48,127 nt of DNA from assembly GCA_043381765.1 (NCBI GenBank), contig JBHJMP010000644.1, positions 1-48,127 of the forward strand, written 5' to 3'. A model generated the notes under the pieces. It did no database searches. It saw only the letters and a list, made by a program, of their open reading frames with translations, and was not told where the DNA came from. Made by a program: the position numbers and the translations under genes. Shown piece by piece: positions 6,041 to 45,940 of this stretch. The DNA comes from Collodictyon triciliatum. Taxonomy: Eukaryota. Positions within the stretch are counted from its first letter, which is position 1; every line of letters begins with the position of its first letter.

Positions 6041-7960
6041 AGAAGAGCTAATATTCACTCATTATCGAGTAATAAAGAGATCCAATAAAAGAAGAAGAAG
6101 AAAGAAAGAAAGAAGGCTTCCTCCATAATGCAAAAGTTTATCTGTACTTCAGGTGCACTGTATTCATTCAAATCCGACATAAATTCTTCTAAGCCGTGGA
6201 CATTCCATTCTCCAGTTGAAGGGTCAGACACATATTCAAACTTGCATGAATTTCCCAATGAAAGGAATCGGTAGCTTTATGATGACATTTAGAAGTTAAT
6301 ACTAAAATTGAATCACGGAGCATCGTGTGATGTATTCTTTAAGAGTACCAAACTACCAGTGAATATTAAAATCGCACATACCTTCCATCGAAGAAGCGAC
6401 CTATATTGGAAGGGCGGAGAGAACCCAACAAGAAACCAGGGAATTTCATCTACGAGTAAATTTAGGTATGTTTTGGATGAAAGGTCGCCAAGGAACCACA
6501 AAAATACATATGAATAATATATTGTCAAACTGGATAAGATTTTTCTGGCTTTTTCTTTAAATATATATTATGAAGAAAGAAAAACTATATGTAATCAAAT
6601 AAATGAAACTTCTAAAACGGTCATATATTGGTGTTGTTGTTATTCTCTCACCGATTTTGAGGGCTTTTTGGTAGAAGCTCCATGCGGGTCGTGTAAGAAA
6701 CACAAAGACTGACATATAAAACTTGAAATGTGCTGGATTTCTGTATCGGACAAACGTTGATGTCTTCTGTGAAGGTAGGTTGCTAGAGTCTCTTCTCCAG
6801 CTTCTGTGATGATGCAATGAGGATTTTCACTGTGCAAAGACGACCCGACATGTCTGGCGTCGAAAAACTCAACCAAGTTTGCGATTGGCGACGTAAGGTC
6901 TGTTTGCACAGTCGTTAGTATGATATACATGTTATAAGAAGCAATGACTGAATTAAGATATGTTCTTACTTATTTAAATTAATATGAATCTTATCGAATA
7001 AAAATGACGCTTTCCATGTAGCTATTGTATTTGTTCATTCTTTACATTTTTTTATTACTATATATAAGTCTACCATATCTAAAGCGAATCATACGAATCA
7101 AGAAAGTAAATACCCAAAAGGACTGAAATGATGATTACCTGTGGTTGATTTAGAACGGACTGATTCTATTGTGGCACTAACTTCCCTCACTTTATTCACT
7201 TCAGACTCATAGCATGTCATTAAGCTTTCTGGGTATAGGGTTAAAAGCACTCGAATACCNNNNNNNNNNNNNNNNNNNNNNNNNNNNNNNNNNNNNNNNN
7301 NNNNNNNNNNNNNNNNNNNNNNNNNNNNNNNNNNNNNNNNNNNNNNNNNNNNNNNNNNNNNNNNNNNNNNNNNNNNNNNNNNNNNNNNNNNNNNNNNNNN
7401 NNNNNNNNNNNNNNNNNNNNNNNNNNNNNNNNNNNNNNNNNNNNNNNNNNNNNNNNNNNNNNNNNNNNNNNNNNNNNNNNNNNNNNNNNNNNNNNNNNNN
7501 NNNNNNNNNNNNNNNNNNNNNNNNNNNNNNNNNNNNNNNNNNNNNNNNNNNNNNNNNNNNNNNNNNNNNNNNNNNNNNNNNNNNNNNNNNNNNNNNNNNN
7601 NNNNNNNNNNNNNNNNNNNNNNNNNNNNCATTATAATCTTCAACTGGTATAGACCTGAGCTCCAAGACGAAGGAGCTCTTGAAGCAGAGAAACATGACTA
7701 TACAAGACAGCAATCGAAACTGCTGATTTATTATCCATAGTTAAGGATGGAAGACGAGAGCGTAGCTCTTGTGAAGTAAATTCCAGAAGCAATTGAAGCT
7801 TTCCACAGAAGATTGCTGGCCTGGCGGACTCTTCATCGAAAGTAACTAAAATAGGATGAAATTTATATCTTAGGTTACAATTTCGTTCAAGAAACTATCA
7901 TTGAAACCCATTCCGAACGTTGTCAAAATATCAGCAAGATAGACATGAATGATATGCTAA

Positions 7961-8056
<96 letters not shown>

Positions 8057-8596
8057 CTTATATTTAACAAAAGATAATGTAAAGAAAAAGAATGGAAAAA
8101 CAAAGAGATATTGCATAAGAAATTGCATAAGAGAGGGATAGGAAGTAGAATAATGATGTGAAATTACATGTTTGGTGGTCAACCAAGCACCATGTTTCAT
8201 TGAACTTATTTTGAAGCTGCAGTAGATTCCAAACTGAGGGAGAAGCTTCTAAACTGAGAATTCCGTGGAACTCAACTATGAGAAATTTATTTGTTTATTG
8301 ATTCAAATGGAATTGATAAGAAGAATGCTGCATAAAATTTATTTGAAGGGTACTTATCGAATGAAATAAACCATTTAAAATATTGATATGATATGGTATA
8401 AGTTGCTTTGTTTTTTAAAATACATATAATTATTTAAAAAAAGAAAAAAATAAGGATCCAGACAAGCGTAAAATAGAGAAAGAATTTATTGTTTTTTTTT
8501 TAAAAAAAAAAAGGGAGAGAATCTCGATAAAGTTGAGGGATGGACGAACGCAACAACAATCACGTAGTGAAATTGAACATTCATATTGTTGCTGTT

Positions 8597-8657
<61 letters not shown>

Positions 8658-10209
8658 TTTTGTGAATGATGTTGTCGCTACCTTTGCAAAAATTGTGTTG
8701 GCGCAGCAGCCGAACGGCCGAGAGGATGCCAGAGAACGGGATGGAGGCAGAGAGGTGGATGTGCCTGAGCTGTTTGCAGACAGCCAAGTCTGGAGCTATT
8801 TCCTGGATGGGACATCCGAGAGCAGAGATTGTCTGTATGGCGGGCAGATGGGAGAGAGCATGGCCCAGGATGGCGACTTTCGTGTTGTCTATGACGAGGA
8901 CGGAGAGATTGCGGAGGACGCGGAGGTCGCTGGGGAGGTGGAGGAGGGGGTTGCTGGAGAGGTCGAGGCGGAGGAGGGACTGCAGGTCTGCGGGGAGGCA
9001 GGCAGGCAGGGAGGAGAGGCGGTTTCTGCTGAGGTCGAGATTGGCGATGGGGATGAAGGGAGAGAGGGGGAGGGCGAGGGCGAGGGAGTGGATGGCCATG
9101 CCGGCGAGGGCGAGGCAGGAGCGGGGGAAGGAGTAGTAGGAGTAGAGGGCGGCGTGGTCGGGGGAGAAGGGGTTTCCGAGCAGGGAGAGGGCGGTGAGGG
9201 CGGAGAGGGCGGTGAGGGAGGGCGGCAGGCCGGACAGGCGGTTGTGCGCGAGGTTGAGGAGGGCCAGGGCGGTGAGGCACGAGAGCCCCGCGGGGAGGGC
9301 GCCGAGCGAGTTGTTGTTGAGGAGCAGGACGCGGAGGCCGTGCAGGGCGGAGACGCCGTCGGGGAGCCCGCCGAGCGCGTTGAACCCCACGTCCAGGTGC
9401 GTGAGCCCCGCGCAGACCGGCGGCCGCAGCAGGAACCGCGGCAGGGCGCCCAGGCGGTTGTGGGCGAGGCGCACGTGGCGCACGGCCGGCAGCAGCTGCT
9501 GCACAAGGCCCAAGTCCAAGCCCAAGTCCAAGTCCAAGTCCAAGTCCAAGTCCGACTCCGACTCCGAGTCAAAGTCGCGGGACAGGTCCAGCAGGCCGGC
9601 GGACGGGGCGCAGAGGAGGCGCAGCAGCGGCGGCAGCGGGTTGCCGTCCAGGGCCAGGGAGCGCAGGCGCGTGAGGGAGGCCAGGCCCGGCGGCACGCGC
9701 GTCACGCGGTTGTTGCGCACGTCCAGCAGCTGCAGCGCCGTGCACGCGGCAAGCGTCTCGGGCAGCGCCGTCAGCAGGTTTGCGCTCATGTCCAGCCCCC
9801 GCAGGTGCGGCAGCGTCGCCACGACGTCCGGCACGTGCTGGAAGCGGTTGTGCCCCAGGTCCAGCAGCTGCAGCCGCGTCAGCCGCGACACCCCCGCCGG
9901 CACCGCGTCCAGCCGGTTGTGCCCCAGCCACAGCTGCTCCACCCGCGTCAGCTGCCCCACCTCCCCACACACCTCCACCAGCTCGTTCCACTCCAGATGC
10001 ACGATCCGCACCTGCCGCCACCGCCCCACCCACCCGGGCACCCGCCTCGCCCCCCGGTGGCTCAGATCAATCTCCTCCGGGCCCTCATTCTCCTTCTCCC
10101 CGTCCCCGTCTCCGATCCTGAACCCTTGCTCCGCCAGATACCGCTCCAGCTCGTCCTCCTCCCTTTGCGCCAGCCCCTTCACAAGCGCTTTCGGAGGCGG
10201 CTCAGACAT
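2732..10209 (-). CDS. Large multi-exon protein: N-terminal leucine-rich repeats, ankyrin-like repeat, degenerate protein-kinase-like domain, coiled coil, C-terminal PH domain
   Basis: Exon 1 (10209-8682) has many LxxLxLxxNxL repeats and ends at a GT donor without a stop. Exon 7845-7655 reads SAVSIAVLYSHVSLLQELLRLGAQ (ankyrin-like). About 6900-5400 has kinase-like segments (ICQSLCFLHD, GDLSSKTYLNLLVD, EYSAPE, LIIRMLQIDPNKR). About 3790-3540 is coiled coil. 3367-2732 is PH (IEGNLLKKSRNWVGWKEKFVRL...FRGRDQAEMDEWHRQI), stop TGA at 2734-2732. Joining into one gene is inferred across an N gap. Confidence 0.68.
5111..5192. repeat. Poly(A) tract, intronic
   Basis: Near-pure A run with a short T interruption. 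Confidence 0.95.
5939..6039. repeat. Poly(A) tract, intronic
   Basis: Near-pure A run. Confidence 0.95.
7260..7628. other. Assembly gap
   Basis: Run of N. Confidence 1.
7961..8056. repeat. (AAT)n microsatellite, intronic
   Basis: Pure AAT tandem. Confidence 0.98.
8600..8658. repeat. (AAT)n microsatellite in first intron of LRR gene
   Basis: Pure AAT tandem. Confidence 0.97.
8682..10209 (-). CDS. Leucine-rich-repeat region (first exon of the multidomain gene)
   Basis: Repeated LRR motifs, e.g. LQLLDLGHNRFQHVP, LRVLLLNNNSLGALP, LALLNLAHNRLSGLP. The poly-Leu tail of the ORF-track translation is intronic (TTA)n after the donor at 8681. Confidence 0.93.
9510..9576. repeat. Coding hexamer repeat (CAAGTC)n/(CCGACT)n inside LRR exon
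   Basis: Encodes DSESESDLDLDLDLDLGLDLG on the minus strand. Confidence 0.9.
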
Positions 10210-11496
10210 CTATGCTACCAACAGACAATTGAATCGAATAAAGAAAAGAAAAAGGGAAAGAAAAAAGGAAAAGGAACTGTGTCTTAGTCACAGTAGCTTG
10301 TTGGGTTATGGGTTCCTCTTATCTTCTTTCCTTCTTATTTTTTTTCCGTTCTTGCTCTTCAATCTTTTTCCTTTCTTCTTTCATCCTACTTTCTCCCTTC
10401 TTTTTTTGTGCCAGATCACTGCAAGGGGGGTGGCGTTTGAGCCGCAGGTCGTTTCCAGCGAAGTTGGGCGCTTGCAATGACTGTTTGACTGCAGGGAAAT
10501 ATCAGCATTGGCGTTTTTTTTTTTTTATTATTGCCGTGTAGTGCGTGTCTTTCATACATTTATGGATTTTATATGATTGTGCTTTATGATATTATTTAGT
10601 GCTGATGAAAACAACTCGATGCATAAATTCAGCACATGTGTAATAAAATTACAGCATTCACAAGTGATTAAGCTGGGCTTATTTGCGACCGTGGGTTGGT
10701 TCGTTCTCTAAAACCATCTATATTTGGGAAAAAATTGGGCGAAAAGTTCAACCAACTTCGTAACCATGATTGACCAAATTTCTGCCCGAATCAAACACAC
10801 ACCCCAAAAAAAAAAAAAAAAGAAACGAAAGCAAAAACGCCAAGGGGCTCGCGCAGAACAATCAAACCCCCAAGAGGGCAGCCACTCTCGACAGAAGGAC
10901 GCGAACCAAAAAACGAGCCGTAAGACCTAGGTGTAGTGATAAGAGGCCTCTCCAGCGACAACATTCAGGAAGGCCAGAACCTCACGATCGCAACCAATAA
11001 CGTCACACATTATGAAAACCAAAATACAAAACGTACTTGTTGTTCAAAAGGCTGGTTTATTTCAAAGGATCGATTTCTTTGATCAGGAGCTTGTCTATCA
11101 CGTCCTTATGACCCTAACTCGGTTGCTTGGTAACTTAACGGAGATATACCTTTTTCTTTTTAAAGTTTAAAAAATACTCAAGAATTCTTCCTAAACTTAT
11201 TTCACGGCCTTTCTGGTCTCCCCCCGCACCATACTTTCTGAATACGTGATCGCCCCTTCTGTATCTTCCCGAGGAAATAGTAGTTTTCCCTTTTCCCCCC
11301 CTTTTTTATAGTTTTTTTTTTTATTAAGAAGCTGAAAAAGTCAGCTCGATCTACTCGCCCACTGCTATTCGTTGTTGAGTTTGCAGGCGGCTAGTCTCAT
11401 CCAAAAGTCTGTGGTTTAGATCTTCAGCGCAGCTGTCTCTCTCGCCAACTAACCCGGAGAAGAAAATAAAAACAGCCTTCTGTCAAGCACCCGATC

Positions 11497-14400
11497 ATGT
11501 CTGAGCGAGAAACCGCCGATCGCAAAGCCGAATCTGTTCGTGAGCATCACCCCTTGGTCGCTGTGATAGCAAAGAAGCACCGTGCCGCCCGCAAGAAGCT
11601 GACAAAGGTTGAGGAGACTGAAAAGAAGATTGCCTCGCAGAAGATCAAAGCTCTGCCTGAGCAACTTGAGGCGATCAAGAACAAGACCAAGCTTTCGATT
11701 CTTGTGGAGGACTATGAGGAGACATTAGAACAGCTGGTTGTGGCTGAAAAGGAGGTCGAAAAAGCGGTTAGTAGTTGCTTAAATGTGTCCCTGAAGTCTT
11801 TATGTGGTGCTAAAACGTAAAAAATAGTCAATTTTTTTCTTCTTCATTCCTACCCGTACCTTTATTGCGCCAAAAATCGCCCCGCTATCTAGCCTGAACC
11901 TTATTAAAAAAAGAAAAACATCACCATAGAGACTTGAGTCACTTAACGCTTTGGAGGCTCAGTTTGAGGAAAGACTTCAAAATGAAAAGTTGCTGTGGGA
12001 AAAAGACTTACTTGAGCGCTACGAGGTTTGTACCCCTGGGGACTATGAGAATATAACCATAAACACTTACCTGTGTTTGTACAAACCGAATTATTCACGC
12101 CTTTTCCCTTAAACATGTATGTTGTTGTTGTTGGATAAACACTAACACTATCCTCTCTTGACTACATGCATACTATTGTGATTTAAAATAAATATACCTC
12201 TCTTAGGTTGTTCGTCAAGAAGAGTTTAAGAGCATCGCACGCCTGTACCGCTTGTCTGATTACTTCAATCCTCAAGTGTCCGTCTCCGAGGAATATGTGG
12301 AGGAAATCAAAGCTAAAGTCCCCAATGCGAAGGTGCGAACCTAACTGCCGACTGCTCTCCTTCCTAATGCAAACAAATAATCGATTATAATTTTAGAATA
12401 ACAATCACGCAAATAAACGAGAGTCAAACATACACTACCTAGTCACCCTATTTTTTTCTTTTACTACCATAGTACGCCACTGCCGAAGAGTTTCAAACAA
12501 TTGTCAACAACATGAACATCTTGAGAGGATCCGTTTCTGCTTTTGAGTATGATTCCAACCTCAAAGTTTTTTTCTTCATCTCACAATTCTCTCATTCTAT
12601 GTCAAGAGAATATCAAGTATAGTAATAATAATAATGACCCTCAACCCAACCCCAGCGACCCTCATTACACCGAGTCAGTATCACTTTCTCTTGGAGCAGA
12701 GAGACTCCGAAAATTCGTGGATAGGTCCACTGATCTTCTTACAGATGAGCTCGACTGTATTTTTTTTTAATTTTACGCATACACAATCCAAAATAATTAT
12801 TTTTATGTAGATCGTCTAGTTAATGTACTAATTCGATTTTATCTCACAATTTGCACTTATCTAATGATCGACTTCTCTTCATTTTGACAAAGTTTCCACT
12901 GTCGCTCAACAAGTCGAAGACCTGGAATCTATCCTGGAAGCTTTTAGAACTGCAAATACGACGGTCCCCGAGGAGGAGGAGGTTATCGAAGTTGCTGAGA
13001 ATGCCGAGGTTGCCAAATCTTCCAGACAGCAACATAGACACACTTTATTGTTTTTTTTTTATTTGAACCTTTATAGTGTATCTAATTAACTTTATGTACA
13101 GTCTGTAGAGGTTCAAGATGAACAGGCAGTCGTTGGAGAACAATCCGAGAAACTCAAGCCATGTATGATTACCCTTTTCAATCAAAGCTGAATGATTATA
13201 CCGGGCTTCCATTCCGCATTTGCACTTTGAAATACTATATTCCAAAATGTATACAAGAATTATATGTCATAAAAGTATGATATAATTTCTTGAGTATTTC
13301 ATGAATGATGTTATCCTAATCATCTTCAAACCAAATATCTAGCATTCAAGTTCTTGCATCCCTCTTTCCTTGAAGAAAGTATGGCATATGTTTTTTATTT
13401 TATTTTATTTTACTTCTCATACCCGGTTTATGCATATTTACATTTCAATTATTGAGTGATTATGTATTTTTTCCTTTCGCGTTGTAAAACATCCCAATTT
13501 TAATCTTGCAACATGTATCCATTCCATTCTCATTCACTCGAAACATATTTCGCTACACGAGCCCCCTCATCACTCAATCTGTTATGTTCTCGTTAGAGCA
13601 AGAAGAGGAGCAACAAGAAGCTGTCGAAGGAATCGAGCAAGCTCAAGAAGAGTCTCAGCCTGAGGTGGTGGAAGTAGAAACAGAAATTGAGGCCGAGGCA
13701 CCAGTACAGAGCGATTCGACCCAACCAGAGGACGATGCTCAAGCCGCCGTGGTCGCAACAACCGGATCCCCCGCCGAAAGTGAGAACACAGTCGAAACAC
13801 CCCAGACTGCCATTACCGAAGCCACCACAGTTGCCGAAGTACCTGCACAAACACCTGTGCCCGCGCCGGTTGCTGCTGCTTCGTCTCCTGTGTCTTCGGC
13901 ACCTGAGCACATACCTGCATCTTCAGAGCAACAGCGCCGCAAGGGCACCCGCTCGGGCAAACACGAGAGATCTTCCAAGACCAGCCTGTCCACTACCATA
14001 GTCTCCACCAACCTCGTCAGCATCGCCAATGGAGTCCAGGTTCTCGTCAAGACGAAGGTCGATACCTCATCCACACCCGCCCCGGCTACCGGCTATGCTG
14101 CTGCTTTGCTCTCCAAGCCAGCTGACAGCCAGCCCCGTAATGCTCAAGTGCGAGTGCAACGGTTTGTCCCTAACCTATATTGGCTGTCTTGGCGTCGCAA
14201 TCACAGGCTCTTTTCTTTATATATTTTGGAGTTAAATCTTTCCCTTCCTTTCAAAGTACAATTCATGATAAGCAAAGACGAACGCATGACTCATATTGGC
14301 CGTTGGCTTAGTGTTCCTGCCACAGGACTTGCTGTGAAGACCGAGAGCGCCGAGGAGGCCGCTGCTGAGTCAGAGGCAACAAGCAAGAAAACACCAAAGT

Positions 14401-23128: not shown

Positions 23129-25991
23129 TTACTCAAACTTTATGCCCTGGGCAAGGACCAACTGGGAGGTGTAGTTGATTGTGCTGCATGGGTGCGCAAT
23201 GATTAGCAAATAGATAAGTTGCTCCGTGAAGAGTAATTGAAAAAAAAAAAAAAAAAGCCCAGGTACACTCCCAGCCCAAAGGAAAGAAAGAAGCTGGAGT
23301 AGGAAGCTGGCGTTTGAATGGGTGACCTAAGGAAAACCCAAGTTGGGGAATGAAGGCAGAAAGAAAAATGATGAATTCAGATAGCGTAGTGGTTACCATG
23401 TAGAGCGGCGCATGTACTGCTTCCAAGAGTCGCTCCCAGCCTCGCGGCCGCATCCGGTTTCCTTCTCTCCTCCAAAAGCACCACCAATCTCGGCACCGCT
23501 TGTTCCGATGTTTACGTTGACCAAACCGCAGTCAGAGCCCAAAGGTCTGCAGGGTTGAGGAGCAAAATAATTATGAGTGCCTCCAGACAGCTGGGAATGG
23601 GTCCCAATAGCACACTTAGTATTATGGTTTGGTGATAAAACGGGAGTAGGTGATTAAGAAAAACTTACCCGAGCCATTCCCAAACTCTGGAGTGGTCTCG
23701 CGTGAAGATGGAGCTGGAGAGCCCCTGGGGGACGCTGTTATGGTACTTGACGGCCTCTTCGAACGTCTTCATAAAGCATAATGCCCAATGAATTTTCGTT
23801 TAGTGAAAAGGAACCCAATTCACGAAAATGTGGACAGAGAAAGGAAATAGCATTTTGATGGGCTGGCAATAAACACAATAGATAAGTGGTAACGCCAAAA
23901 CTGCAAATAATGCATTACAAGATTGTAAGTACTTACAGAGAACTTCATGATGTATGTGATAGGCACGAACAGCTCAGTCTTGATGACCTCGGCGCTGGGG
24001 TCAATTTCGACCAGAGTGGGCTCCACATAGTTACCTGGGCCTTCTATTCTCTTGCCTCCGTGGATAATTTTGCCACCCTAAATTGAAATTGGGCTTTGTA
24101 AGCCACAATTGTGATTCTGCAAATAAAAGCAATAGAGGTGTTGAACAGCGTTGGAAAATCTATAGAGCTTGTCATAGAACAAACCTGGGACTTGATGGTT
24201 TCAATTCCATCAAGGTATTCCTTGATTGCGGCAGGGGTATGAAGTGGTCCGCACAGCGTGCCAGCAGCAAGGGGGTCGCCGATACGGACTTGCTTGTATG
24301 CGTTCAGCAGGCTGGCCACCACCTGGTCGTATATCGACTCGTGCAAGAAGAGGCGACGGGTGGTCGTGCAGCGTTGGCCACAGGTACCGACAGCTCCAAA
24401 CACAACGGCGGGGACGAGAAGCTTTAGGTCAGCATCAGGCATAACTAAGGATATAAATGTCGGAATCCAGTGGTGGGTTGGTTAAAACGCCTGAAGAAAA
24501 CACCATCAGTATCACAGTGCTCACATTGATGATTTCAAATATTCATACTCACCAATGATGCCGTTATTCCCACCGAGCTCCAGGATGGTTCGCCCTGTTT
24601 ATGTGCACAAGTTATCAGGACAGGCCTCGGGTGTATAAAATTCCCTTTCATACATAAATGACGCAATATTTTGTACAGATATGACGGAGGCAAGGTTACC
24701 AAAGCGGGATGCAACAGATGAGCTGACACGGCGCCCAATCTATTTTGTCAACAGAGTGAGAAACTCGAGTGAAGTGGATGAGAAATTATGGGGACTGGGA
24801 GGACAGAGTTAGTTCATACGTCAGTGCTGCCTGTGAAGGAGATCAGTGACAATCTGTGGTCATTGATCAAGCGTTCTCCGATGCTCTATATCAAAAATGA
24901 TAAGCACATGTGGCATCTGGACTGAAAAAATTGATTCATGCAGGAATTGGGGGCCGGCGAGGAGGGACAGGCACAGGGTCTTATGAAAACTAAAGCTTAC
25001 TCTGCCGGGTCCAACAACCATGGTGCACACAGCACCAGGGACGTTCGCAGTCTCCATCACACGAGAAATAATCTTCATGATGGCGATAGTGCACAAGCTT
25101 GTGGAAGAGGCTCCCTTCCTAAAACCAACAATGTCAAAAGAGGGTCTGAAAACAAAACTGACGCATGGGATGGAGCAGGGGAATGTCCAGAGAAGATATT
25201 ATGAGCAAACGGAGAGCCTTTTGTGTTGAGGAATGTGCAGTGGGGTTACTAAGAGACGAACCAGATAACAGTGTTTCCACAGATCATGGCAAGGGTGACG
25301 TTCCAGCCGTAGACAGCCATAGGGAAGTTGAAGGCGGAGATGACACCAATATGCCCAAGGGGGTTCCATCTCTCCAGAATGACGTGACCAGGGCCTGGGA
25401 CATGGACACAACAGATCACATCACATCAGTATGAGAACGGCTATTAACAGGCAACACCAGAGAGTATGGCCTTCTCAAGTGCCTGACTTTAACAAGTAAC
25501 CACACGATATGAGCTGCCAAAAAAAAAAATGAAGAACGAAATGATCAGCCTGTTTAAGACATACGCTCAGAGGGAATGACAGAGCCACTGATCATGCGAC
25601 TCAGGCCCGTGGCAAAGTCGCACATGTCGATGAACTCCTGGACCTCCCCTTCGCCTTCCGTCAGGATCTTCCCCATCTCAAGAGAGATCAAACGGCCGAG
25701 CGGCTGCTTGTACTTGCGCAGCTCCTCCCCAATGCGGCGCACAAGCTCTCCCCTCTGAGGAGCCGGCATAGTCTGCCAGACCGGGCGGGCCTGTTCCATG
25801 GCGCTCAAGCAGGCCTCATAGTCCTCGGGCGTGGCCTGGCGGATCGGTGCGATCGGCCGGTTGTCATGGGGGCTGTGCGTGTCAAGCAGCTCTCCGTGCG
25901 CCTCCCAGCGTCCCGAGTAGCAGCCGGCGTTTTCCGACGTGATTCCGAGCTCGGCAAGGAAGGGGTGTTCGGCCAGGAGATTAGTGCTCAT
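23129..25991 (-). CDS. ALDH7A1: Aldehyde dehydrogenase family 7 (antiquitin / alpha-aminoadipic semialdehyde dehydrogenase)
   Basis: Motifs [50 protein letters not shown], catalytic [44 protein letters not shown], ending [11 protein letters not shown]. Confidence 0.96.
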
Positions 25992-26757
25992 CGTTCTAGA
26001 GTCCTCGGTGCTTGGCGGTGTCTGTGTGTTTAAGCGTCAGGCTGTGGACGTATTTTTGCTCCCTGGTGGAAGGAATTGAGGAAGAAAGAAGCAGTCTCGA
26101 TTGCGGAGGGTTCTTGTTTTTCTTGTTTTCTTTTTTTTTAGGGTGTCATTCGTGATCGCTTTGGAGGTTTGGTCAGGTTGTCCAGGCATGAGTTGCGCAG
26201 AATGCCAGTGGTTGTTTGGGAATGTCCCTCGAGTGCGGCTTGCTTGGGCAAGTAAGATGCTGTGGCTTGGACGCGAATCGACGCGTGGGTGAGGGCGCAA
26301 GGCGATTGGCGTATTTATAGACGCGCCTTTTCGCGGTGAGCGCCTCATTGCACTTTAATTTCCACATGTGGATTCCGCTTTAGGGATTGACCACATGCAC
26401 TTCCAGAATCTTCCGCGACCACACAGCCGAAGTAAATCTCTTGGACTTGATTGGTCTAGTGATTTCATTTCGTGATTGCAATTGCCTGATGGGTTTGTCT
26501 CAATGCGTTTGTGGAAAATACGCTTTGGAAGGGCTGCAGGGTCAAGTCTGCTCGATCATCTCGTGCCGCTTTATTTTGATGAGGTGATAGTGCCTTTGTG
26601 AAGACAGGATATCAGGGTTTGGAGATGGGGATGAGGGGAGGGGAGAAAAGTGTGCGAAACCAGAAAAAAGTGAAAAAAAGTGAAAAAAAGGTTATTTATT
26701 CTGTTGGTAGGAAAAGGCAGTTCTCGGCCAACATGCTGGGAGTTCTAACAAATTTTA

Positions 26758-28601
26758 TTACTTGCCTACAGCAACCGCGGCGATGATAGCGGCGCCAACA
26801 CTGGAGCCATCCTTGCTGAGTGTCAGATTGATTTTGGAGGAGTTTTCGGTGCCAATTAGCTCCGTGAATGCATCCCTCATCTGCTGTTGAAATCCTGGAT
26901 ATTTCTCAAAAACACTTCCGTCGACAGCAACAGTCGTCTTGGTGCCAACAATCTTCATGTGCTCCAGTATCGCCACCAAGCCTGCAGTGGTGAGCCGAGC
27001 GGCACGCAAGGAGACCAAGTGGCAAACTTCATGGAGGATCTTTCTGTCTTCAAGCGAGCCTCCCTCGTGGACCTGCAAAACTTCTTCAACAAACTTTCCG
27101 ACCTTATCCAAAGCTTCAGAGTCGTCTCTGTGGAAATCCATTGAGGAAGAAAAAAATAAAGATAAAAACGAAGTGTGCTGTTTAGTGGATTGCAAGGTAT
27201 GGACAAGTTTAATCATGATTGTATCCTTCACACCAATTGAGAAAGATGTTGCGGTTAAATTAGATGTCCCACACTCACCCAGCAATTCTCGACATGAACT
27301 CAGTCTCAAAGAGGTAAGGGATGTTGAGTATGTGAGGCGAGTTTCCATTGAAGAGGACCTTGGATACAATCAACTTCCGCAGGAAAAGGCGGGCGATTTC
27401 TCCTAGGTACATTCCAGAGATCATTTTTTCAAAAGTTTGGGTTCCTGGATGGAGGGAGTGAGAGTCCAGAGAGCGGTCACACTCGGTCAGGGGAAGGGCT
27501 TTCTTTTCGAGGTTATCAAATGCTCCCCATTCCATGTTGATGATTGTAGGAGTTTCTTTACGGTCTTCTGGGACTCCGCTGTGGTGTGAATTAGATTAAA
27601 GTCAGGATGTTTGCTATCCAGAGGCTTATTGTCCGACAGAACCGGCTCAAAATGAAAAGTGGGCAAAACAAGAGGTATTAACGTATTTCATACTTTTGAT
27701 TATCATTATTTTTTTACCTGAAATCCTCAAAATAGCAGGCGTTTGTGCCAGTTCCAAGAATCAGACCGACATTACACTCAGTATCGGCGTATGTGCAAGC
27801 AACCATAGTACCGACGGTATCATTGGCCAACGCAGAAATATCAATGTTAAGTCCTTGTCTGGTGAATGCCTCTTTCAGCAACTCCACCTGCAGTTTCATG
27901 TGTACGAAAGCATACTTGGTCAAATACTGCAATGAAACAGCAAAAATAAAATAATTTATTTGTAAATATTTAGGTGTTATTCAAACAATACAAACCACGT
28001 CGCGACCAACGACACCTTCCACGTCAAAGCCCTTGGTCCAAGCCAGAAGTGTTCCTCTGTTGATGGAATGCTGCTGGACAGGGAAGGAGAAGGTAAAGCC
28101 GAGTTTGTAGTTGGCCTCTTTGGAACCAGACTTTTCAATGAACTGCGCCACACTGGAGGCCAGGAAGTCGAAGAGATCGGAGGCGACCCCTTTCATGGCA
28201 TCCTGGTGGACGGTGAAGCTCATGTGCTGATTCTCCACGATCTTGCCCTCTTTGATGCTCACCAGAAAGACTCTGAAATTAGTGCCCCCAAGATCTAGCG
28301 CAAGGTAGGAACCTGTGATCGGAATGAAGTGAGCTGCGCCGTTGTAAAAGCAGGAAAAAAAATAGTGGAAGATGAAAAGAAAACTTGCGATAAATCAAAG
28401 CTCAGTAAACAAACCCTCCTCAAGGCCGGTAGCCTTGCCAACGAAGGAACGAAGCATCAATAGAGAGCTGCGTTCCTTGAGCAGACCCGCAACCATTTCG
28501 GAGCGGAAGTGCGCAACAACTTCTCGGAGAGTGGCAGACGAAACAGTAAGTTGGTCGCGGGCATGAGTCATATTGAATTCGGGAGCAGAAGTTGGATCCA
28601 T
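26758..28601 (-). CDS. HXK: Hexokinase
   Basis: Motifs LALDLGGTNFRV, LGFTFSFPV, WTKGF, NDTVGT, ILGTGTNACY, NMEWGAF, FEKMISGMYLGE, VDGSVFEKYP, DGSSVGAA. ATG 28601, stop TAA at 26760-26758. Confidence 0.96.
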
Positions 28602-32200: not shown

Positions 32201-32608
32201 CAAAACCAAAACCAAAACCAAAACCAAACCAAAACCAAACCAAAACCAAAACCAAACCAAACCAAAACCAAACCAAAACCAAACCAAAACCAAACCAAAA
32301 CCAAAACCAAACCAAAACCAAACCAAAACCAAAACCAAAACCAAACCAAAACCAAACCAAAACCAAACCAAAACCAAACCAAAACCAAAACCAAAACCAA
32401 ACCAAAACCAAACCAAAAACAAACCAAAACCAAACCAAAACCAAACCAAAACCAAACCAAAACCAAACCAAAACCAAACCAAAACCAAACCAAAACCAAA
32501 CCAAAACCAAACCAAAACCAAACCAAAAACAAACCAAAAACAAACCAAAAACAAACCAAAAACAAACCAAAAACAAACCAAAAACAAACCAAAAACAAAC
32601 CAAAAACA
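32201..32608. repeat. Mixed (AAACC)/(AAAACC)/(AAAAAC) satellite
   Basis: About 400 bp of alternating 5- and 6-mers, largely an 11-bp higher-order unit. Confidence 0.97.
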
Positions 32609-33846
32609 ATGTGAATATCCCTGGTGCCATCACAGATGGTTCTTTTTCTAAAGTCACTTGAGTTTGCGAGATATGTGCTGCTCGTGGTGCCTTTAAAGAC
32701 GTTCGAGCCAATTTTAAAAAAGAAAAGAAAAGAAAAAGGACAGTTCTCCGCTGTTGCAGCTTTTTATTTAGTAGTCCCTGATATTGCCGTTCAATGCGCC
32801 CTACCGAAAGCTTCAGCTGTTTTTCCCTTTTGCGTTTACAACGACTCACCTTAAAAAAATTGCTGTGCGTATTCAATAAGGGTGTTCTCATCAGATAAAG
32901 CGAGTCAGCATTTCCTTGTCAGCGTAATGACATACCTCTTACAGTGGACAAAGACTGCCTGATTGGTAATGACTGTTGCTACTTCTAATTAGAAGATATT
33001 GATGAGGCTTGATGCTTGCAAACTTGCTAAATGCCTTGTAGCTGGACTTTAGATGATTAAGTTATAATTTCCACATATATAGAATGTCATTCCATCACTT
33101 GGAGATTTCAAATTCTCTGAAAGCAAGATTAGCATAAGGGAAAATGAAGTCAATTTCAATAGAAATGGATGATATTTAGAAATAAATTTATACAAGAATT
33201 AATGCCATAGAGAATTAGACAATTTTGGCAATAAAAGTTAATCACACTTTGTGTTTGAATGGAATATTCTCTTTCGCTTGTGGGTGATGAATCAAAACAT
33301 TCTGTGCAGCCACCAATCACGCAGAACCTCACCCAATACCCACACCAGCACGAGCCCCACCTCAAAGCTCCTTCGTCTGAGTAAAGGCACCTCACATGAT
33401 CGACACTCACAACTACACAAAAGAACAGAGAAAATTAAAAATCTTCTGGGCTTAGCTCCTTACTCCCACGCACTGCCCCCAACTCTAGACTTTTTCTTAT
33501 TTAGTTTCTTTTCCTAGCTTCTTTTCTTTGTTTCTTCTCGATTGCCCTAGGCAGAATACAGATAGTTCTTATTCAATTGCTTCTCTCCTAGCTCAGTGAA
33601 TGAGTCTGATATATTTTTTTTTTTGCACGAACAGTGAGTCACGCGCACCTTTCTCATTCGATCGGAGGGTCTTGCAACACTTTTTAATACTCTGTTGCTG
33701 TGACTCAGCATTTTTCATTTGATTTTTTTTTCGGGATCTACATTGATTGCTGCGATTTTTCGACAAATTAAACACCAGTGTCTTTCCAACTGACCTCCAA
33801 ACCCACTAGAACCAGCAATCACCACAATAACCGACGTCGAGACAGA

Positions 33847-34155: not shown

Positions 34156-34444
34156 TTTTTTTTATTTTTTTTTTATTTCTATTTTTTATTTTATCTTTTT
34201 TCTTTTTTTTTTTTTTAAAAAAAAATAATAATAATCAAAACCAAAACCAAAACCAAACCAAAACCAAACCAAAACCAAACCAAAACCAAAACCAAAACCA
34301 AACCAAAACCAAAACCAAAACCAAAACCNNNNNNNNNNNNNNNNNNNNNNNNNNNNNNNNNNNNNNNNNNNNNNNNNNNNNNNNNNNNNNNNNNNNNNNN
34401 NNNNNNNNNNNNNNNNNNNNNNNNNNNNTTTTTTGGTGTTGTTT

Positions 34445-37500: not shown

Positions 37501-38913
37501 GTTCTATTTCTATCTTCTTTTCATATTACTTATTTCAAGATATATCTCTCCGAAGTTTATGATTATTATAGTTTGGAATTACAAAAACAAAAAACTATAT
37601 CATCACACACTTCCTCAGCGCAAGTACAGCACTAACCATGAAGCCGTGCAGAAGCTGCATATCCCAGGCAACAACCCAGCACCAACACCATCTGGTCATC
37701 GCTCGTCAAGCTCACCCAACTATTCTGGAGGCAATCGCGGGCAGAAGTTTAACCGCGGCTACACCAACGCCGAGTACGCTGACCCCCACACTTCGGGTTT
37801 TGGGTCCCAGTACTCTCCCCACGGGGTTGGATACGCTGCATATGGTGGCGTCTATGACGACGGAACACAGCGCATGGTATTCAACTTGATTCATACCCAT
37901 AATACACCCACATCTCCAGACTATCTCACAGAGAAATGGCGCGTGTACCCCTCCCCTGAGGAGACATATATCTAGAGATAGTAATAAAAGAAAAGAAGAA
38001 ACCCAACGATTGAAACACTCCTCCAAATCCAGCAGGCCGGAGAGAACGGATACGGAGGCGGCTACCACCGCGGCAACGAGCACAAGGGACAGGGAGCAGG
38101 CAGCCAAGGACAAGCCAACGCCGCACCGGGCGGAAACGGAGCGCCGCAGACCACAGGCACACAAAGCGCGAGCGCAGGCACAAACGCAGCGCCGAACGGA
38201 AACGCGGGCACAAATGCAGCGACAAACGCAGCCGCTGCAAACGCAAACCCTGCCGGGTCGATGCAGATTCCTCCAACTATGCCAGTAGGACAAGGACAAG
38301 GACAAGGACATGGCCAAGGCCAAGGCCAAGGCTACGGGCCGATGGATGGGATGGGCTTCCTGCCCGGCATGATGACGGGGTCGTCGTTCGCACCCATGTT
38401 CCCGCCGTTCATCTACCCGATGGTCGGGCAGATGCCATACTATGGCGTGGGCGGGCCGTTTGTGCCGGCTGGGCCGCACGCGTTCATGCCGCATATGGGC
38501 GCATACCCGATGCCCGCCGATGAGGACATGCACGCGCACATGCATCCACACGCGCACCCACACGCGCACCCACACGGCCACTACGGCCACATGGCACAGC
38601 CACACGCCTCGGCCCAGCCACAGACGCAGACGGTGCCGCCACACAGCCACAACCACAGCCACAGCCACACACACGGGCAGGGCCAGGGCATGGGCCAGGT
38701 CGGGCCACACCCCGGCGGCCGCGGCGGCCGCGCACACGGCTACAACGGCGGCATGGGCGGCCCCGTGAGCGGACCGATGGGCATGCCGCCCGCACAGCAG
38801 CACTACGCCCAGGGACACCCTCACGCCCCGGTCTACGCCCCGCCCGCCGCTGCTGCGCCCAAGGCCTACGGCGGATACGGATACCCCCCGGACCAGGGCT
38901 ACCGCGCAAAGGT

Positions 38914-38966
<53 letters not shown>

Positions 38967-39239
38967 GCACGCACCCCTTGTCTCCCGCTCCCGCTCCCTG
39001 TCCCTGCGCCCCGCCTTCCAGCATGGCCCTGCCATGGCGAGTGTGGGCGGGCGAGTGAGGTTGCTGGTAGTGCGATTGTGAATGCGGTGCTGACGCCGCT
39101 GATTACCCCTCTGTAGCCGGCCATGGGAGGCGCCCCGCAGGAGTACGCCGCCCCGGCCCCAGCCCCAGGGTACTTTGGCGGCCAGTCGGGGAATCTGCCG
39201 GGCCACCCCAGATCGCACCCGAACGCGGCCAAGTGGTAG
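33847..39239 (+). CDS. CUE/UBA-like domain protein with long disordered and prion-like (G/Y/Q/P/M/H-rich) C-terminus; Def1/UBAP2L/lingerer-like
   Basis: Exon 1 reads LQNLERIFTKTPKEDLAQALKDNTNDFDLTMKRLL (CUE/UBA-like), followed by DENEWLGGKPVKKDK, the Trp-then-lysines pattern seen after this domain in Def1/UBAP2L. Then P/T/E/A-rich exons and an RGG/YGG/GQ-rich end. Last exon ends NAAKW-TAG at 39239. Confidence 0.65.
34236..34328. repeat. Second (AAACC)/(AAAACC) satellite copy, abutting N gap
   Basis: Same units and same upstream leader as the array at 32201. Confidence 0.95.
34329..34428. other. Assembly gap (100 N, probably unknown size)
   Basis: Run of N. Confidence 1.
38912..38967. repeat. 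(GTT)n microsatellite at start of last intron of CUE gene
   Basis: Tandem TGT directly after the splice donor. Confidence 0.96.
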
Positions 39240-39347
39240 CGCTGCCTTGTGGCTCGGCCTCTATCTCGTGACTCTGTCTGTGGCGTGACATCTCGCCTTC
39301 ATAACCCTGCGGATTCCAACCTCTGTCCTCCTTGCTGTCTCTTGTGC

Positions 39348-45552: not shown

Positions 45553-45940
45553 NNNNNNNNNNNNNNNNNNNNNNNNNNNNNNNNNNNNNNNNNNNNNNNN
45601 NNNNNNNNNNNNNNNNNNNNNNNNNNNNNNNNNNNNNNNNNNNNNNNNNNNNNNNNNNNNNNNNNNNNNNNNNNNNNNNNNNNNNNNNNNNNNNNNNNNN
45701 NNNNNNNNNNNNNNNNNNNNNNNNNNNNNNNNNNNNNNNNNNNNNNNNNNNNNNNNNNNNNNNNNNNNNNNNNNNNNNNNNNNNNNNNNNNNNNNNNNNN
45801 NNNNNNNNNNNNNNNNNNNNNNNNNNNNNNNNNNNNNNNNNNNNNNNNNNNNNNNNNNNNNNNNNNNNNNNNNNNNNNNNNNNNNNNNNNNNNNNNNNNN
45901 NNNNNNNNNNNNNNNNNNNNNNNNNNNNNNNNNNNNNNNN
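45553..45940. other. Assembly gap
   Basis: Run of N. Confidence 1.

Follow-up and report, generated by a model that had tools for sequence, protein, structure and literature searches.

The first exon of an LRR gene in the window (i.e., the whole stretch of 48,127 nt that was analyzed) forms a GC-rich island along which synonymous sites pass from a strong preference for G to a strong preference for C. The change is a smooth log-linear gradient rather than a step; it is symmetric, is confined to the island, alters the encoded protein, and is accounted for at neither the protein nor the RNA level. The gradient points to a local strand-specific DNA process. The preliminary description of this DNA had proposed a focal strand-asymmetric process, and an asymmetric cause acting on DNA is upheld by the synonymous sites and the confinement to the island, while its identity is more than a single sequence can settle. 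The most likely cause, which we propose tentatively, is a recurrent recombination-initiation (double-strand-break) zone, with GC-biased conversion and strand-specific damage of resected strands; recombination was among the options originally named, and it would fit the data best.

The LRR gene and the gradient in its first exon

The gene lies on the minus strand, with its ATG at 10209; exon 1 ends at 8682 and is followed by a GT donor (8681-8680). Exon 1 makes up the entire GC island in which the G3-to-C3 gradient occurs. The elements of the gene are as follows.

8682..10209, minus strand: exon 1 of the LRR gene (1,528 nt; GC, 0.69), supported by the ORF and its translation, Pfam, tblastn, and RNA contigs
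8276..8681, minus strand: intron 1 (406 nt; GC, 0.22; sense strand G29:C62), from an RNA contig joint
8599-8657: (TAA) x19.7 tandem repeat inside intron 1
8191..8275, minus strand: start of exon 2, AT-rich (5' edge at 8275 supported by RNA; 3' edge at 8191 a GT read by eye)
10210..10290, minus strand: tract rich in pyrimidines and then AG, immediately 5' of the ATG in the sense direction (GC, 0.35)
9510..9576: hexamer microsatellite, (CCAAGT) x11.2, encoding a DLDLDL linker between two LRR blocks

One RNA contig splices 8682 to sequence matching 8246-8275, and the gene is expressed and spliced. RNA contigs, aligned over 8665-13400, matched exon 1 with 100% identity at 8682-8757, 8716-8858, 9147-9500, 9581-9887, and 9316-9451; none fell on 9929-11417, which carries no evidential weight, and library adaptors at the contig ends make the strand and the 5' end of the LRR transcript unreadable from them. 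The tract at 10210-10290, as read by eye, may be a splice or trans-splice acceptor. The gene product is an LRR protein, with repeated LxxLxLxxN-type units that are recognized by profile models (Pfam LRR_8, 3.7e-39 in seven stretches; LRR_4, 6.2e-30; LRR_14, 9.1e-21). A protein search gave 489 homologues at E<=0.001 among 8,000 scored, with a top identity of 36%, and tblastn with LRR homologues matched a single frame across 10149-8656, both arms included. The best-scoring homologues belong to the ROCO (LRR-Roc-COR) family. For Roc GTPase and COR domains, tblastn with 14 homologues, LRR-Roc-COR proteins among them, matched 8656-10149 alone and nothing downstream in the window; we do not assign the gene to this family on the sequence in view, the later exons being undefined. 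Rfam gave no match anywhere in the window, and a leader sequence looked for in the literature did not turn up there.

As the preliminary description had stated, exon 1 is far richer in GC than the AT-rich remainder of the gene (GC3 at the start of exon 2, judged by eye, is about one third). In 200-nt windows of the plus strand, GC is 0.58 to 0.76 over 8701-10200, whose GC skew changes from +0.65 (9001-9200) to -0.49 (9901-10100). The reported G-rich left side (e.g., agagagggggagggcgagggcgaggg at about 9059-9085) and C-rich right side (e.g., ccgccccacccacccgggcacccgcc at about 10021-10046) are both present. In 30-codon bins of the sense frame, GC3 is 0.77 to 1.00 in codons 1 to 450 (0.87 to 1.00 over most of the exon), and the third-position (G-C)/(G+C) value drops from +0.83 to -0.93 along the same codons. 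The early LRRs do use G-ending codons and the later ones C-ending codons: four-fold sites count G77:C5 in codons 1 to 150, G49:C34 in codons 151 to 270, and G21:C106 in codons 271 to 450 (r=-0.60 between position and G or C; the computation ran on 8674-10209, so that the last bin holds 2 to 3 intron codons, and the three bins quoted are unaffected). The parts of the gradient and its G-rich motifs are listed below.

9760..10209, minus strand: G-ending arm, codons 1 to 150; protein rich in Gly, Arg, Trp, Val, and Glu
8860..9399, minus strand: C-ending arm, codons 271 to 450; protein rich in Ser, Ala, Pro, and Leu
8682..8859, minus strand: 3' tail of exon 1; GC3 decays to 0.53 to 0.73, with C3 still above G3
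9049-9086 and 9183-9222, plus strand: G-quadruplex-type motifs in two clusters, both on the template strand for LRR gene transcription
10024..10055, minus strand: G-quadruplex-type motif of the 5' arm, on the sense strand

Protein content is excluded as the cause, in agreement with the earlier view. When third bases were permuted within each codon family, none of 20,000 permutations was as extreme, and all eight four-fold families shift in the same direction (seven significantly on their own; TCN, p=0.11). The shift had been called a flip, a word that the model fits do not sustain. At 292 sites, a linear logit in which the G-versus-C log-odds drop by 1.73 per 100 codons (logL, -118.7) outperforms the best step (-131.7) and the absence of any trend (-191.7). 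Its zero crossing, at about 9485, falls beside the hexamer microsatellite and outside the originally proposed center of 9500-9800. It is also close to the middle of a plateau at about 9130-9939, where GC3 is 0.97 to 1.00 before declining toward both ends. Individual families switch at different points, Arg, Gly, and Ala near codon 150 and Leu, Pro, Val, and Thr near codon 270. The gradient is dyad symmetric, since either strand is G-rich 5' of the center.

Codon positions 1 and 2 and the amino-acid content shift together with the third positions, as mutational or conversion pressure predicts. The second position goes from G37:C24 in codons 1 to 150 to G25:C57 in codons 271 to 450, Glu content falls from 11% to 0% between these arms, and just three two-fold R-ending codons (Glu/Gln/Lys class) are left in the C-ending arm.

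Assembly, antisense coding, and selection on the transcript

A composite origin (i.e., a misjoined or inverted assembly, two fused genes, or amplified G-type and C-type repeat units) might be suspected from the three runs of N in the window and from the repeat linker that connects the two LRR blocks, and it is largely refuted. A single reading frame with LRR matches spans both arms, and a 786-nt RNA contig shows zero differences across 9147-9500 and 9581-9887, the aligner having skipped the hexamer repeat between them. The change is gradual inside each block, with the families switching near one or the other of the two codon positions given above. The LRR units are 60 to 75% alike at the DNA level, which also dismisses amplification of a founder unit. 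An antisense gene was rejected as well. Three plus strand ORFs lie over exon 1, none with a Pfam match; those from 8666 and 9146 have wobble sites in common with the LRR frame, and the third (8656-10284) is codon-aligned with it. Nor is exon 1 a classical CpG island, since the observed/expected CpG ratio is alike throughout, at about 0.8 (island, 0.83; rest of the window, 0.79; 5' arm, 0.77 to 0.98).

Selection on the transcript would take the form of a ramp of less-favored G-ending codons followed by favored C-ending ones, or of selected mRNA structure, G-quadruplex, or R-loop elements. At the four-fold sites of other genes in the window, C is preferred to G, which may mean that C-ending codons are the favored ones, and such a ramp would place C at 3' ends (PMC3315797, in the text cited). 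Predicted long-range pairing between the 5' and 3' parts is also raised (205 pairs versus 117 in global synonymous shuffles). We nevertheless regard this explanation as very improbable. The native MFE (-688.5) is not below that of local (-692.9 +/- 8.2; n=12) or global (-682.5 +/- 13.5; n=12) synonymous shuffles, and selection for mRNA structure is rejected on this ground. The G arm is at least 150 codons long and uses GGG, CGG, and GCG, and codon positions 1 and 2 and the amino acids shift too. A metagenome scan for an orthologue of the exon gave two LRR genes of 24 to 29% identity, usable as controls only, and neither of these distant genes has the gradient.

Flanks, second GC island, and other genes of the window

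Intron 1, beside the island, is AT-rich (GC, 0.22 to 0.38), and at the ATG, GC falls from 0.69 to 0.35 in about 100 nt. The flanks keep the sign of the adjacent arm, with a plus strand skew of +0.36 in intron 1 and of -0.17 at 10210-10420. In the 997-nt intergenic flank (10421-11417), by contrast, the skew is lost (-0.05; -0.34 to +0.16 in 150-nt bins); the near-zero intergenic value likewise gives no support to a plus strand transcription unit starting inside exon 1. The gradient is limited to the GC island.

Replication origins had been proposed among the focal processes, and a replication initiation zone is the weakest of them. Fork direction would change across the island, a replication-linked bias would set G versus C, and the G-rich motifs 5' of the center would act like origin elements. 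A sign change with a linear ramp and G-quadruplex-type motifs on the plus strand left of the center and on the minus strand right of it are consistent with such a zone. According to the texts cited, G-rich elements lie upstream of initiation sites in fly, mouse, and human origins (PMC7506530), and the leading strand of yeast is rich in C and A, which would yield the observed polarity (PMC3459929). The polarity of human and Escherichia coli origins is the reverse in the cited part of PMC2817419; replication-skew direction is described as species-dependent (PMC3459929), and polarity therefore decides nothing. The sign change would be expected to persist over kilobases of intergenic flank; instead, it is confined to 1.5 kb, and the sense-strand rule described below would also cover the +0.36 of the intron. 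The skew is also much larger than any replication skew that these texts describe, those being averages over many loci and kilobases, and GC3 saturation is left unexplained. We therefore consider a replication zone improbable.

The preliminary description proposed to check for skew switches of the same sign at GC peaks, and such switches are not borne out within the window. Of its 17 GC-rich runs, a strong sign change occurs in the exon 1 run alone; one other run changes partially, at four-fold sites.

38330..38905, plus strand: comparator, the second GC island, within the last large exon of a plus strand gene; four-fold sites go from G22:C9 to G7:C25

This shift (Fisher p=1.3e-4) has the same direction as that of exon 1. 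In the 5' part of the second island (37988-38257), C exceeds G, and the skew over all sites does not change sign. The island sits at the 3' end of its gene, and the partial shift lies more than 3 kb from the gene start. An intron inside it has a GC of 0.66, versus 0.26 to 0.36 in seven ordinary introns; GC richness in this genome can thus be regional rather than codon-bound. Two other 5' exons are flat: the GC-rich first exon of the ALDH gene has no four-fold shift (C12:G11), and the first 60 codons of the neighbor gene have no G3 excess (C10:G5).

On the sense strand, C exceeds G in eight of eight introns (the seven neighbor-gene introns total G119:C205), and C is also above G at the four-fold sites of the hexokinase exons and of the neighbor gene. 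Skew domains of kilobase scale track gene orientation in the window. Together with the position of exon 1 as the first exon of its gene, these observations favor an asymmetry tied to the phase of transcription: the sense strand would favor G where the transcription unit begins, in the manner of R-loop-prone CpG-island promoters, and C in the gene body, the latter being the general rule in this genome, with GC3 saturation magnifying both. A sign change of intragenic skew at four-fold sites and in amino acids has a direct fungal precedent in the cited text of PMC3315797, where the polarity is reversed, with C bias 5' and G bias 3'. We judge this explanation to be possible but rather unlikely, since the two flat 5' exons lack a G3 excess, the partial shift in the second island is remote from a gene start, and the arm skews (about +/-0.9) far exceed those of introns (-0.27 to -0.36). 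In addition, the acceptor-like tract suggests that transcription starts at a more distal 5' point, although the strong G bias sets in at the ATG.

Exon 1 showed no differences from RNA contigs over 737 nt, and five variable sites are listed for the neighbor gene. The closest protein matches of the hexokinase exons (58 to 64% identity) and of the ALDH exon (83%) are transcriptome proteins.

Possible recombination initiation and known systems

Under the favored recombination reading, exon 1 would be a 1.5-kb island subject to a two-fold-symmetric local DNA process centered at about 9485-9580, at the hexamer microsatellite. GC-biased gene conversion would strip A and T from free sites until GC3 approaches 100%, leaving only the choice between G and C open. 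Resection after a break would then leave a 3' single strand, which is the plus strand to the left of the break and the minus strand to its right. If cytosines on the exposed strand were damaged and repaired as C>G, the plus strand would accumulate G left of the center and C right of it, and breaks dispersed across the island rather than at one point would smooth the change into a gradient. The further claim, that a recombination-initiation zone has persisted here for long and has left its standing footprint in the composition of exon 1, where G versus C records the single strand left on each side, is one that we hold with more reserve and consider doubtful.

Several results argue for recombination initiation: the gradient at synonymous sites of all eight four-fold families, the superiority of the log-linear fit, the GC3 plateau with its zero crossing near the middle and beside a microsatellite, the regional GC richness seen in the intron of the second island, the shift of that island in the same direction, and the flanks that hold the skew sign of the adjacent arm. 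As at hotspot islands, GC at free sites is far above that of the flanks and peaks centrally (GC3, 0.97 to 1.00; flank GC, 0.22 to 0.36). Raised noncoding GC, another expected feature, is found in the internal intron of the second island and not in the intron adjacent to the first (0.22 to 0.38). In human meiotic-break hotspots, DNA to the left of the break is single-stranded on the forward strand and DNA to the right on the reverse strand, and the flanks carry strand-asymmetric C>N and A>N mutations with C>G peaks off-center (Hinch et al. 2023, PMC7615360, in the text cited). The resemblance lies in a mirror asymmetry on a scale of about 1 to 2 kb (here, a plus strand skew of +0.65 to the left and of -0.49 to the right, in composition), in cytosine loss on the resected strand, with C>G prominent, and in a polarity that would agree, the side of C>G and the mapping to mutation types being deduced from that text. 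The human work, as cited, concerns new mutations at PRDM9-defined sites with off-center peaks at a narrow center, whereas exon 1 offers a compositional ramp alone; the linear ramp thus demands the extra assumption of dispersed breaks.

Other results count against recombination initiation. The AT-rich intron 1 and the GC drop at the ATG suggest that the edges of the island follow the exon and not a position in the DNA. The absence of RNA-contig differences sits awkwardly with a mutagenic hotspot, for which more variation might be expected, although the counts are low. The second island replicates the pattern imperfectly, and the ALDH first exon is GC-rich without a four-fold shift. Meiosis would have to be assumed for this organism, and we counted this against the explanation.

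If recombination is the cause, such gradients would mark break zones, and the strand that resection exposes, from sequence alone. If this were general, break zones and resection spans could be deduced from the genome alone in organisms without genetics, and break zones would rewrite proteins, enriching them in Gly, Arg, Trp, Val, and Glu on one side and in Ser, Pro, Ala, and Leu on the other. Should transcription or replication be responsible instead, exon 1 would display the corresponding asymmetry with unusual clarity in a natural setting. The exon also warns that position in a DNA-level gradient, and not protein function, can set intragenic codon usage and amino-acid content.

Ginno et al. 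reportedly described, in 2012, GC-skewed, R-loop-forming CpG-island promoters. Exon 1 resembles such promoters (see also PMC4412123, as far as its cited text goes) in having a GC-rich 5' region, a G-rich nontemplate strand, and undepleted CpG; it differs in that the CpG ratio is uniform window-wide and that the C-rich second half has no counterpart there. It shares with origins a point sign change of skew and G-rich or G-quadruplex motifs 5' of the center (PMC2817419, PMC3459929, and PMC7506530), but origin skews in the cited texts are small and extend over long flanks, whereas that of exon 1 is extreme and stops where the island does.

Intragenic GC-skew gradients and GC-biased islands are each already known; in the literature on skew gradients, GC3, and hotspots, as cited here, we found no single exon that combines GC3 saturation with a mirror-image log-linear ramp reshaping the protein. 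In unicellular fungi, GC skew changes sign along genes at four-fold sites and in amino-acid usage, as in exon 1, and was argued to be mutational (McLean & Tirosh, PMC3315797). The cited text describes a modest genome-wide average that is C-biased 5' and G-biased 3' and reaches promoters and UTRs. Exon 1 has the reverse polarity, involves one exon, attains about +/-0.9 at third positions within a GC3-saturated island, and is not matched by other 5' exons of the window; we therefore reject a gradient of the fungal type, general across genes. In the text cited from Tatarinova et al. 2010 (PMC2895627), the CG3 skew of grasses, followed along codon number, levels off at values as small as about 0.05 to 0.1. 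As described in the cited portions of three papers (Clement et al. 2014, PMC4316631, and 2017, PMC5460877; Pracana et al. 2020, PMC7403616), which contain no G-versus-C reversal inside an island, gBGC islands and GC3-rich first exons have a local GC3 far above that of their flanks. Exon 1 shares this elevation, together with high GC3 in a long first exon, low GC3 past the first intron, and amino acids dragged along.

A third-position gradient across exon 1 of the leucine-rich-repeat gene

In this window of eukaryotic DNA, the GC island corresponds to the first exon (exon 1) of a leucine-rich-repeat (LRR) gene, which has its ATG at 10209 (minus strand) and a single open frame down to a GT donor (8681-8680). 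An RNA contig (run X1) covers 8682-8757, and its next letters match 8246-8275 (29 of 30); this places intron 1 at 8276-8681 and the 5' edge of exon 2 at 8275. Contigs with 100% identity (i.e., 8716-8858; 9147-9500 plus 9581-9887, a single contig of 786 nt; and 9316-9451) lend support to the assembly of exon 1 and to its expression. The product is an LRR protein (Pfam LRR_8, 3.7e-39; LRR_4, 6.2e-30) with only 36% identity to its closest homologues. In a tblastn search, 14 homologues matched through both exon halves in one frame, with no match downstream of exon 1 in the window. LRR units are just 60 to 75% alike in DNA, which rules out repeat amplification; together with the identical contigs and the shared frame, this makes an artefact or composite origin of the exon scarcely credible. 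A contig of run X3 matched just 39 nt (9058-9096, in the C-rich arm), at an identity below that of the contigs listed here, and its sequence on both sides is very GC rich and does not resemble the window; this contig may represent a GC-rich paralogue.

Features of the window
7260-7628, 34329-34428, and 45553-45940: three N runs (assembly gaps), each within very AT-rich DNA
8276-8681, minus strand: intron 1 of the LRR gene (RNA contig joint)
8682-10209, minus strand: exon 1 of the LRR gene (ORF, RNA contigs, Pfam)
9510-9576: (CCAAGT)x11 microsatellite, encoding a DLDLDL linker
26761-28394 and 24047-26012, minus strand: hexokinase exons and an adjacent ALDH7A1-like gene
38000-39300, plus strand: second GC-rich island, in the last exons of a plus-strand gene

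In 200-nt windows, plus-strand GC content is 0.58 to 0.76 over 8701-10200, and GC skew runs from +0.65 (9001-9200) through approximately 0 (9401-9800) to -0.49 (9901-10100). In the sense frame, codons 1 to 450 have a GC3 of 0.77 to 1.00 and a third-position skew that declines from +0.83 to -0.93. The four-fold sites count G77:C5 in codons 1 to 150 (5' arm; 9760-10209), G49:C34 in codons 151 to 270, and G21:C106 in codons 271 to 450 (3' arm; 8860-9399). These skews and counts confirm the preliminary description of a GC-rich exon whose plus strand is G rich on the left and C rich on the right. Protein content was likewise correctly dismissed there as the cause, since in a test made within amino acids none of 20,000 third-base shuffles within codon families was as extreme as exon 1; seven of the eight four-fold families are individually significant. 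The protein also tracks the DNA (second positions, G37:C24 in the first arm versus G25:C57 in the second), with Gly, Arg, Trp, Val, and Glu in the first arm yielding to Ser, Ala, Pro, and Leu in the second. Only 3 two-fold R-ending codons (Glu/Gln/Lys class) are left in codons 271 to 450.

The G-to-C change is a ramp with no switch. In a model with family-specific intercepts, the G-versus-C log-odds drops linearly by 1.73 per 100 codons (log likelihood, -118.7, versus -131.7 for the best single step and -191.7 for no trend), and a cubic term gave no improvement; the internal skew "flip" described earlier is therefore not borne out. Because codon families differ in baseline (CTN, GTN, CCN, and ACN toward G; CGN, GGN, GCN, and TCN toward C), the switch falls near codon 150 for Arg, Gly, and Ala and near codon 270 for Leu, Pro, Val, and Thr. 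The gradient crosses zero near codon 240 (coordinate 9485), next to the (CCAAGT)x11 microsatellite and not at 9500-9800, where its centre had been placed. When a sequence is G rich in its 5' part and C rich in its 3' part, so is its reverse complement. This gives the pattern two-fold symmetry, and gene orientation is not readable from it.

Causes acting through coding or RNA

Antisense genes were rejected, as the long plus-strand ORFs over the exon have no Pfam match; those from 8666 and from 9146 have wobble sites in common with the LRR frame, and that at 8656-10284 is codon aligned with it. CpG methylation was excluded (observed/expected CpG, approximately 0.8 both in the island and elsewhere). 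LRR coding as such was excluded by flat third-position usage in both of two distant LRR genes, and mRNA structure by a native MFE (-688.5) within the range of synonymous shuffles that kept (-692.9 +/- 8.2) or destroyed (-682.5 +/- 13.5; n = 12 each) the gradient. The last two results also make translational or RNA-level selection very improbable.

Skew elsewhere in the window and candidate mechanisms

The sense strand has more C than G in all eight introns (8276-8681 and those in 11766-13342; skews of -0.17 to -0.46), and the four-fold sites in the hexokinase exons and in the neighbour gene (plus strand, from 11418) show the same excess; skew domains of approximately 10 kb track gene orientation. 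Thus, the C-rich arm has the usual sign at several-fold strength, and the G-rich arm runs against the rule. An asymmetry set by transcription phase has a fungal precedent, with skew sign changes along genes and shifted amino acids in the passages concerned (PMC3315797). However, the fungal polarity described there is opposite, other 5' exons of the window lack a G3 excess (none in the first exons of the ALDH gene and the neighbour gene), and the second island sits at a gene 3' end, all of which leaves this explanation rather doubtful.

The second island shifts at four-fold sites from G22:C9 to G7:C25 (p = 1.3e-4), and its repeat-like 5' part has C > G, so that it is a partial replicate only. 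Its intron (38906-39116) contains a (TTG)n run and otherwise has a GC content of 0.66, versus 0.26 to 0.36 in seven ordinary introns. The terminal exons (37988-39240, plus strand) are of low complexity (Gly/Gln/His/Pro/Tyr rich), with no Pfam match, and GC richness reaches approximately 500 nt beyond the stop codon. At the window scale, the same-sign skew switch anticipated at GC peaks failed to recur: exon 1 alone, among 17 GC-rich runs, has a strong sign change. Its skew contrast ranks second among all window positions, after the edge of an 11-bp minisatellite (32203-32609; AAACCAAAACC x37, 94% matches).

A replication initiation zone would be consistent with the sign change and with the G-quadruplex-type motifs on both arms, and the direction of replication skew is species specific according to part of the text of PMC3459929. 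This origin is nevertheless unlikely: strong skew stops at the island end (-0.05 at 10421-11417) with no spread into the flanks, its size is unlike that of replication skews, and GC3 saturation is left unaccounted for.

The best reading, which we hold tentatively, is that the gradient may be the footprint of a recombination-initiation zone. GC-biased conversion would yield a saturated, centre-peaked GC3, as well as the regional GC of the second island, and, with A/T excluded, G versus C would be the sole remaining freedom. Passages of Hinch et al. 2023 (PMC7615360) describe resection that leaves single-stranded DNA on either side of a break (the forward strand on the left, the reverse strand on the right), strand-asymmetric flanking mutations (C>N and A>N), and an off-centre C>G peak. 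Such resection with asymmetric C loss predicts a plus strand that is G rich on the left and C rich on the right, matching exon 1; which side carries C>G we infer from the text of that paper. A linear ramp would follow from breaks dispersed over the island. The evidence against a recombination zone is that the island edges are exon edges, that RNA contigs show 0 differences in 737 nt of the exon, compared with five variable positions in the neighbour gene, and that the second island is an imperfect replicate.

Both ingredients (i.e., a skew gradient and a GC3 island) are already known. Literature searches covering gradients of skew, GC3, and hotspots of recombination found no within-exon G3-to-C3 reversal this strong; the nearest likenesses are the fungal intragenic gradient (in the portion of PMC3315797 concerned) and the CG3-skew curves of grasses, which plateau at approximately 0.05 to 0.1 in the text excerpted from Tatarinova et al. 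2010 (PMC2895627). The finding rests on one locus, with several candidate causes.

Neighbouring genes and other features

Contigs of the neighbour gene (11418-13378 and beyond, plus strand) from four of four runs (at least two studies) open with identical 21 to 26 letters. In the genome, these letters do not precede the AG acceptor (11418-11419), and with up to 3 mismatches allowed they occur nowhere in the window; this suggests trans-splicing of a spliced leader, or a 5' exon that lies very far away. The gene continues with seven GT..AG introns (93 to 181 nt). A metatranscriptome contig (run X2) matched only the exon at 12471-12546, differing at 11 of 76 letters, and the match breaks off precisely at each exon boundary; these intron positions appear to be shared by a relative from the same water. 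The top two matches of the hexokinase exons are eukaryote transcriptome proteins, followed by bacterial ones (Omnitrophota and others; 45% identity), and the adjacent ALDH7A1-like gene is 83% identical to a transcriptome protein. The N run at 7260-7628 is flanked by long (TAA)n and (ATT)n trinucleotide microsatellites.
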